Assembly: GCF_013167455.1 (NCBI RefSeq) | Contig: NZ_CP038328.1 | Source: Escherichia coli O157:H7 | Lineage (GTDB): Bacteria > Pseudomonadota > Gammaproteobacteria > Enterobacterales > Enterobacteriaceae | Direction: 5' to 3' (one strand) | Length of the DNA stretch: 64,000 bases | Part shown: piece by piece, positions 44,942 through 48,469 of the stretch | Position numbering within the stretch: the first letter of the stretch is position 1 | Layout of the letters: every line of letters begins with the position of its first letter | Program-made: the position numbers and the translations under genes | Notes under the pieces: generated by a model | Seen by the model: only the letters and a program-made list of their open reading frames with translations | The model's database searches: none | What the model was told of the DNA's origin: nothing

Positions 44942-45265
44942 ATGTCGATTACACTTAGCGACAGTGCAGCAGCGCGAGTAAATACCTTTCTGGCTAACCG
45001 TGGCAAAGGGTTTGGCCTACGTCTGGGCGTGAGAACCTCCGGATGTTCAGGTATGGCTTATGTACTGGAATTTGTTGACGAACCGACGCCGGAAGACATC
45101 GTGTTTGAAGACAAAGGCGTGAAAGTCGTGGTCGATGGCAAAAGCCTGCAATTTCTGGACGGTACGCAGCTGGACTTCGTAAAAGAAGGCCTGAACGAAG
45201 GGTTTAAATTCACCAACCCGAACGTTAAAGATGAGTGTGGTTGCGGCGAAAGCTTCCACGTTTGA
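44942..45265 (+). CDS. iscA: Fe-S cluster insertion protein (A-type carrier)
   Basis: 107-aa product ([13 protein letters not shown]) with the C-terminal CGCGESF motif. Confidence 0.95.
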
Positions 45266-45360
45266 TGCGCATACCGATAACCCCACCGTGGTCGCCTGCG
45301 CGTGGGGGTTGTTTTACCTGATTCGCCGTTATCGCGGCGGATCGCAGCCCTGAGAATGTT

Positions 45361-45876
45361 ATGGATTACTTCACCCTCTTTGGCTTGCCTGCCCGTTATC
45401 AACTCGATACCCAGGCGCTGAGCCTGCGTTTTCAGGATCTACAACGTCAGTATCATCCTGATAAATTCGCCAGCGGAAGCCAGGCGGAACAACTCGCCGC
45501 CGTACAGCAATCTGCAACCATTAATCAGGCCTGGCAAACGCTGCGTCATCCGTTAATGCGCGCGGAATATTTGCTTTCTTTGCACGGCTTTGATCTCGCC
45601 AGCGAGCAGCATACTGTGCGCGACACCGCGTTCCTGATGGAACAGTTGGAGCTGCGCGAAGAGCTGGACGAGATCGAACAGGCGAAAGATGAAGCGCGGC
45701 TGGAAAGCTTTATCAAACGTGTGAAAAAGATGTTTGATACCCGCCATCAGTTGATGGTTGAACAGTTAGACAACGAGACCTGGGACGCGGCGGCGGATAC
45801 CGTGCGTAAGCTGCGTTTTCTCGATAAACTGCGAAGCAGTGCCGAACAACTCGAAGAAAAACTGCTCGATTTTTAA
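45361..45876 (+). CDS. hscB: Co-chaperone HscB
   Basis: 171 aa; J-domain HPD motif. Confidence 0.95.
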
Positions 45877-45892
45877 TTTCTGGAAGCTAAAC

Positions 45893-48292: not shown

Positions 48293-48469
48293 TTTCCGCG
48301 TCATGCTTCACGCCGCAGATGCGTTGGCTGCGCTCGTTCACCCCAGTCACATAGTTATCTATGCTCCTGGGGCTTCACTCACTTGCCGCCTTCCTGCAAC
48401 GCGAATCATTTAGCGGAAAAATCCTGGGGCTGCCAACTGGCGGCCCTTTTACAAAGAAGGATAACTAAA

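Follow-up and report, generated by a model that had tools for sequence, protein, structure and literature searches.

A conserved stem-loop with a U-rich tail in the iscA-hscB spacer of Escherichia coli: a candidate 3' boundary element of iscRSUA

How the expression of iscRSUA is set apart from that of hscBA-fdx-iscX within a single run of genes, and whether the long spacer between iscA and hscB takes part in this separation, is the question raised by the isc locus of Escherichia coli. The locus was analyzed within a 64,000-nt stretch of E. coli O157:H7 DNA (contig NZ_CP038328.1 of assembly GCF_013167455.1), which is referred to here as the window. In the window, iscR, iscS, iscU, and iscA and then hscB, hscA, fdx, and iscX follow one another on the + strand in the same layout as in the K-12 annotation, where the operon lies on the minus strand and a position is obtained as 2704828 minus the window position. 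Junctions within the operon measure 1-27 nt except at iscR-iscS and at iscA-hscB, the latter being an untranslated spacer of 95 nt (45266-45360, + strand) that extends from the iscA stop codon (TGA, 45263-45265) to the hscB ATG (45361-45363). Two long structured spacers divide the operon into iscR, iscSUA, and hscBA-fdx-iscX, and the iscA-hscB spacer is the second of them. A weak Shine-Dalgarno-like UGAGA at 45351-45355, part of a YNGAGA motif that is kept ahead of the hscB ATG in relatives, presumably serves as a weak hscB ribosome-binding site.

The first long spacer, between iscR and iscS, contains the iscRS stability element (Rfam RF01517; 43186-43295, 127.8 bits), while the iscA-hscB spacer gave no Rfam match even at E values up to 10. 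The split between iscRSUA and hscBA-fdx-iscX is already known from databases and recent work: the two segments are separate operons in EcoCyc-derived operon tables, and Prevost et al. (2025) describe an isc operon of three parts, in which hscBA-fdx-iscX appears as a transcript from an hscB promoter. A search of the accessible literature returned no description of a hairpin between iscA and hscB. If such a hairpin attenuates transcription or protects an RNA end, it would help to set the ratio of IscS, IscU, and IscA to HscB, HscA, Fdx, and IscX, and would fill a gap in the three-part view of the isc operon, in which only the iscR-iscS member of the two structured spacers has been characterized. 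The gain would be incremental, as the element is of a familiar kind, the operon has been heavily studied, and the expected effect is small.

The spacer carries ACCCCAC (45280-45286), then GTGGGGG (45302-45308), and directly after it TTGTTTT (45309-45315). A sequence-only reading of this DNA had recognized these elements as a hairpin within the 95-nt spacer; its coordinates were right, and the comparative evidence given below makes the hairpin real and clearly non-random. The arms as written in that reading are not perfectly complementary here because of an extra G at 45308. The structure, termed hairpin 1, occupies 45281-45307 on the + strand, with a 5' arm at 45281-45291, a loop at 45292-45295, and a 3' arm at 45296-45307 in which C45301 is bulged (CCCCACCGUGG/UCGC/CUGCG-C-GUGGGG, -17.4 kcal/mol). 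In the window and K-12 alleles, the stem comprises 11-13 bp with 8-9 G-C pairs and a stability of -17 to -19 kcal/mol, in keeping with the stem length of approximately 5-14 bp expected of terminators. The U-rich tail GUUGUUUUA at 45308-45316 on the + strand, which reads UUUGUUUUA in K-12 and most relatives, is the site at which a 3' end would be expected if the hairpin terminates transcription. The U tract directly 3' of the stem is UUUGUUUU in the K-12 type (7/8), and GUUGUUUU in the window represents a weakened form of it.

Judged on the window sequence alone, hairpin 1 stands modestly above chance. In single-sequence tests its z score was -2.0 to -2.8, with 2-5 of 200 shuffles equally stable, and in a local-window structure test z was -1.3. 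The hairpin was not among the predictions of a consensus terminator scan of the window. It forms in the RNA that is present when the U tract is transcribed (fold of 45266-45316), and it is replaced by a competing helix in the minimum-energy fold of the whole spacer of the window allele.

Much stronger evidence comes from the comparison of related sequences. The comparative set consisted of 80 loci retrieved by an IscA search, a set from which Salmonella and Klebsiella are absent. When 26 distinct sequences from Enterobacteriaceae and Erwiniaceae were aligned, standard pairs filled 90.9% of the cells of hairpin 1, compared with 34-55% in a control in which the pairing partners were slid by 1-3 columns. 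Changes on both sides of the pair were observed at 8 of the 13 pairs among these sequences, and the covariation score was matched by none of 500 column shuffles. The stem core CCCCA...UGGGG is kept in Enterobacteriaceae, Tatumella, and Rosenbergiella, while the inner stem and the loop vary freely and the spacing between the arms ranges from 4 to about 17 nt. Furthermore, T makes up 67% of the nine bases 3' of the stem and 23% of the remainder of the same spacers (27 distinct sequences). By this comparative evidence, hairpin 1 is a real, evolutionarily conserved RNA stem-loop.

Structure at this junction is not confined to sequences related to hairpin 1. The iscA-hscB spacer measures 43-162 nt across Enterobacterales and about 2-27 nt in Pasteurellaceae, several Methylophilaceae, and other lineages. 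Among 58 Enterobacterales spacers, the mean local-structure z score was -2.9 and 79% of the spacers fell below -2, including ones of unrelated sequence; stable hairpins unrelated to hairpin 1 occupy the same site in Pantoea, Mixta, Serratia, Yersinia, Dickeya, Pectobacterium, Edwardsiella, Providencia, and Brenneria. A discriminant for terminators, of the d'Aubenton-Carafa type, was also applied to these sequences; its zero threshold is approximate because the formula was combined with modern energy parameters. With this reservation, the scores lay mostly between -12 and +29 in Enterobacteriaceae and Erwiniaceae, and at -14 or lower in all Yersiniaceae, Pectobacteriaceae, Hafniaceae, Budviciaceae, and Morganellaceae. 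The distribution by family therefore indicates that a hairpin is general, whereas a hairpin joined to a U tract is particular to two families. The hairpin retained without a U tract in Yersiniaceae, Pectobacteriaceae, and Hafniaceae suggests that the ancestral role was something other than termination.

In unrelated lineages, a hairpin followed by a T run after iscA was found in Tolumonas, in a betaproteobacterial metagenome-assembled genome, and in Photobacterium (loci L054, L059, L063, L070, and L072, which include Methylovorus), the T run of Methylovorus being only short. Terminator-like hairpins were found in none of the lineages with short iscA-hscB junctions (about 2-27 nt), including Pasteurellaceae. 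This distribution suggests that a boundary element at the iscA-hscB junction was gained repeatedly and independently.

Within E. coli, the spacer differs between K-12 and the window at a single base, position 45308 on the + strand, which is G in the window and T in K-12, in E. albertii, and in nearly all related genera. The G is considered the derived state because T is common to E. albertii and the other genera. Among 5426 complete E. coli genomes, the exact 51-nt region is of the K-12 type in 5025 (93%) and of the window type in 301, so that G45308 is a minority allele, found mainly in O157:H7-like genomes. In K-12, T45308 yields a perfect outer stem (AACCCCAC/GUGGGGUU) and the tail UUUGUUUUA, and the minimum-energy fold of the whole spacer places hairpin 1 and a second hairpin (described below) side by side. 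With G45308, the U tract is interrupted and the outer A-U pairs are lost. On the discriminant with its approximate zero threshold, the K-12 allele scores +9.9 and the window allele -24.4, which is below the threshold. The substitution is thus predicted to weaken further whatever intrinsic termination the hairpin provides.

The second hairpin lies within the same spacer and had gone unmentioned in the sequence-only reading. Hairpin 2 (45319-45344, + strand) consists of an 11-bp stem (45319-45329 paired with 45334-45344) closed by a UAUC loop, with a stability of -16.4 kcal/mol and a z score of -4.3. Compared with E. coli, E. albertii shows full compensation at one pair (C-G to U-A) and, in addition, three single changes that preserve pairing; in Citrobacter sp. 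R56, this position is taken by a hairpin whose sequence differs. Among the sequences compared, hairpin 2 is limited to Escherichia and one Citrobacter; most other genera do not have it, and their spacers are about 20 nt shorter. An open reading frame of 18 codons also runs through this region, beginning with an ATG at 45265 that overlaps the iscA stop codon (TGATG), spanning hairpin 1 and its U tract, and ending at a TGA at 45321. This frame is probably spurious, because E. albertii carries a frameshift in it and Citrobacter lacks the ATG, and a leader-peptide attenuator acting through it was ruled out on the same grounds.

Several other candidate identities for the element were considered and rejected. 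The helix 45305-45312/45344-45351, which resembles an anti-terminator and appears in the whole-spacer fold of the window allele, was no better than shuffles in 32 species (mean z -0.28; K-12 z +0.37). No type-2 IscR site was found at up to 3 mismatches to a 26-bp consensus, and the spacing of the arms is variable. A REP/BIME or other dispersed repeat is excluded, since the 295 nt around the spacer, which match an O157:H7 chromosome with 100% identity, occur in one place per genome in 5425 of the 5426 complete E. coli genomes and the window holds no second copy of the motif. A known RNA family was likewise rejected, RF01517 being matched only in the iscR-iscS spacer. Elsewhere in the window, two Rfam families are matched below threshold in the iscX-pepB spacer (48294-48418, minus strand), namely V_AS5 (44.9 bits, E 1.8e-7) and CssrA. 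On visual inspection, this spacer (…CACCCCAGTCAC…CTCCTGGGG…) resembles an ERIC/IRU enterobacterial repeat.

Published transcription data bear on whether RNA ends at hairpin 1 and on how much transcription crosses it. The curated Term-seq tables of Adams et al. (2021), which cover three conditions, are without a 3' end both at K-12 26595xx and within the isc genes; as none was called anywhere in the isc operon, the negative is a weak one. The same study reports a Rho termination region on the K-12 minus strand centered at 2659283 (Rho score 1.9, p 1e-5), which corresponds at the low resolution of its 800-nt windows to position 45545 on the + strand, inside hscB. Read counts upstream and downstream of this region (800 nt each) were 214 and 104 in untreated cells, and 293 and 270 in the presence of bicyclomycin (Adams et al. 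2021). The downstream/upstream ratio thus rises from 0.49 to 0.92 with the inhibitor, as measured in K-12 in LB over 800-nt windows with low counts. Because the approximately 2-fold drop in RNA across the iscA-hscB junction is mostly gone with bicyclomycin, it appears largely Rho-dependent in LB-grown K-12. By arithmetic on these counts, intrinsic termination under these conditions would have a share of roughly 0-25%, barring compensation by an internal promoter.

Two features of the early hscB sequence can be recorded beside the Rho region. The coding RNA at about 45360-45560 is C-rich and G-poor, with a GC skew down to -0.29. In addition, a terminator-like hairpin at 45549-45566, TCCGTTAATGCGCGCGGA followed by ATATTTGCTT, adjoins the center of the Rho region.

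The downstream genes also follow the regulation of the upstream ones. Under mild pressure, all eight isc genes rise together, 10-15-fold. In an iscR mutant of Yersinia pseudotuberculosis, the rise is 13-22-fold for iscSUA and about 10-fold for hscB, hscA, fdx, and iscX. Since hscBA-fdx-iscX are co-regulated with iscRSUA, transcription from the iscR promoter must cross the spacer, and any termination there is partial or leaky. Dar and Sorek (2018) found iscRSUA to be without differential decay under their conditions.

Taken together, these observations favor hairpin 1 and its U-rich tail as a 3' boundary element of iscRSUA, namely a weak, leaky intrinsic terminator that may also block 3' exonucleases, a reading that is given a probability of about 0.55. 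Once the U tract (45308-45316) has been transcribed, the stem at 45281-45307 would form and a minority of transcripts would be released, as at a Rho-independent attenuator. The same stem may shield the 3' end of iscRSUA RNA from 3'-to-5' exonucleases, and this would hold both for ends produced by termination at the hairpin and for ends trimmed back from downstream Rho ends or cleavages. Readthrough by most polymerases would keep hscBA-fdx-iscX under the iscR promoter. The structured, untranslated 95-nt spacer is further proposed to break translational coupling, which, together with the weak hscB ribosome-binding site, could leave the C-rich early hscB RNA open to Rho; access of Rho to early hscB would then account for most of the approximately 2-fold step-down in K-12.

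What the data show of this proposal is the structure, its covariation, the conservation of the U tract, the allele frequencies, and the published co-regulation and bicyclomycin effect; release of RNA polymerase at the U tract, protection from exonucleases, and a causal link of the spacer to Rho loading are inferred. With respect to the role of a decay barrier, the position also agrees, as a stable conserved hairpin stands at a boundary where upstream and downstream reads are in a ratio of about 2:1 in untreated K-12. The weak points of termination as the activity of hairpin 1 are the bulged stem, the G that interrupts the U tract, the sub-threshold score of the window allele, and the competing helix in the whole-spacer fold. 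The suggestion of the sequence-only reading that the hairpin is a partial terminator or processing site uncoupling iscRSUA from hscBA-fdx-iscX consequently holds in part. The anatomy of stem and U-rich tail, its conservation, the recurrence of hairpins at the same junction in unrelated lineages, and the separation of the two modules in databases and recent work speak for it, but the drop in RNA looks mainly Rho-dependent, the genes remain co-regulated, and the U tract is weaker in the window allele.

The main competing explanation is an element of RNA stability or processing alone that brings about no termination, in which the hairpin is a barrier to 3'-to-5' exonucleases and preserves iscRSUA after Rho termination in hscB or after RNase E cleavage in the U-rich linker; the 5' end newly created on the hscB segment would, in this model, be shielded by hairpin 2. 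Such an element is rather unlikely, although several observations agree with it: Serratia, Yersinia, Dickeya, Pectobacterium, Edwardsiella, and Providencia have stable hairpins without a U tract in this spacer, the K-12 step-down is sensitive to bicyclomycin, the linker between hairpins 1 and 2 is U-rich and single-stranded, and conserved protective hairpins without a U tract form a recognized class (Dar and Sorek 2018). An exonuclease barrier needs no U-rich tail, however, and the tail is kept specifically in Enterobacteriaceae and Erwiniaceae. That the Term-seq table of Adams et al. (2021) lists no 3' end at the hairpin weighs against this model to the same degree, and differential decay of iscRSUA was not seen by Dar and Sorek (2018) in their conditions. 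That the inverted repeat arose by chance and has no function is highly improbable: the single-sequence statistics are weak (z -1.3 to -2.8), yet covariation, conservation of the U tract, the recurrence of unrelated hairpins at the same junction, and the identity of the 51-nt region in 5025 of 5426 E. coli genomes all stand against it.

A different role is raised by the hscB start site used by Prevost et al. (2025), who cite Lelivelt and Kawula (1995) for it. Its position can be derived indirectly from an RNA fragment of +486 to +685 relative to the hscB promoter, in which RyhB protects fragment positions 92-99 and 40-52 (Prevost et al. 2025). RyhB contains UUGCUUCCAG, the complement of which, CUGGAAGC, lies at 45880-45887, with a near-complement at about 45831-45839; equating CUGGAAGC with fragment positions 92-99 places the start of the fragment at 45789 and the +1 at 45304 on the + strand (K-12 2659524), within the 3' arm of hairpin 1. 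RNA beginning at this base folds into an extended 5'-terminal stem-loop (-22.5 to -26.4 kcal/mol, z -2.9 to -3.6) in which its first nucleotides are base-paired and hairpin 2 is enclosed. The inverted repeat could be a promoter or 5'-untranslated element of an independent hscBA-fdx-iscX transcript; it would overlap the hscB promoter and start site, and its 3' arm and hairpin 2 would form a 5'-terminal stem-loop stabilizing hscB mRNA. The reported +1, the fold of the RNA that starts there, and the separate hscBA-fdx-iscX unit in EcoCyc are in favor of this role, but it is considered distinctly unlikely. Neither a consensus scan nor inspection by eye revealed sigma-70-like -10 and -35 elements upstream of 45304, and a sigma-70 promoter for this position was rejected because the scan gave no match. 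The compensatory changes in the stem of hairpin 1 speak for RNA pairing, and not a promoter, as the target of selection; the spacing of the arms (4 to about 17 nt) is too variable for a DNA-binding site of fixed geometry; no conservation is seen in the pairing between the 3' arm and the sequence downstream (mean z -0.28); and the downstream genes track regulation at the iscR promoter. The base at 45304 would mark either an unusual promoter or a stop of the 1995 primer extension in a GC-rich stem, that is, a possible reverse-transcriptase artifact. The long-cited hscB promoter is therefore in doubt, given a start inside hairpin 1 and no recognizable promoter upstream. In a further variant, hairpin 1 would be a conditional attenuator at which cold shock, or RNA chaperones of the Csp family able to melt terminator stems, would increase readthrough and thereby produce the cold induction of hscBA reported by Lelivelt and Kawula (1995); the end at 45304 would then be a reverse-transcriptase stop or boundary artifact, and G45308 a natural up-mutation for hscBA-fdx-iscX. 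This variant is regarded as improbable, and the searchable literature contained nothing relevant that links cold induction of hscBA with antitermination. The preferred reading of hairpin 1 as a weak, leaky terminator at the 3' boundary of iscRSUA can be set beside several better-known arrangements.

Leaky internal intrinsic terminators are present in E. coli operons, examples being the rplL-rpoB attenuator and T1 of rpsU-dnaG-rpoD. Hairpin 1 shares with these attenuators an intercistronic position and a GC-rich stem followed by a U-rich tract, an arrangement in which partial readthrough lowers the expression of the downstream genes while they retain the upstream promoter. Unlike in those cases, termination at hairpin 1 is only predicted; its U tract is interrupted, its stem is bulged, and the bicyclomycin data assign most of the step-down to Rho. 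A second parallel involves terminators in the metY-nusA-infB-rbfA-pnp region, which are Rho-independent, sensitive to Csp proteins, and located upstream of cold-induced genes. The hscBA genes downstream of hairpin 1 are likewise reported to be cold-induced, so that both systems place an internal hairpin ahead of such genes; unlike for the metY-nusA-infB-rbfA-pnp terminators, the searchable literature has no link of Csp proteins or temperature to hairpin 1.

Within the isc operon itself, the iscRS element (RF01517) is comparable in being a structured intercistronic spacer that separates the expression of operon segments, although hairpin 1 differs from it in both sequence and structure. The iscRS element acts by differential decay induced by RyhB, whereas the iscA-hscB spacer has no known small-RNA site; the pairing of RyhB is instead at the hscA ribosome-binding site (Prevost et al. 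2025). Finally, hairpin 1 resembles the REP sequence of malE-malF, the stem-loop of the puf operon, and the class described by Dar and Sorek (2018) in that the upstream segment of a polycistronic RNA has, at its 3' edge, a stem-loop that is both stable and conserved. It is not a REP element, because it occurs as a single copy per genome, and whereas protective hairpins of this class are typically without a U tract, hairpin 1 is accompanied by a conserved one in Enterobacteriaceae.
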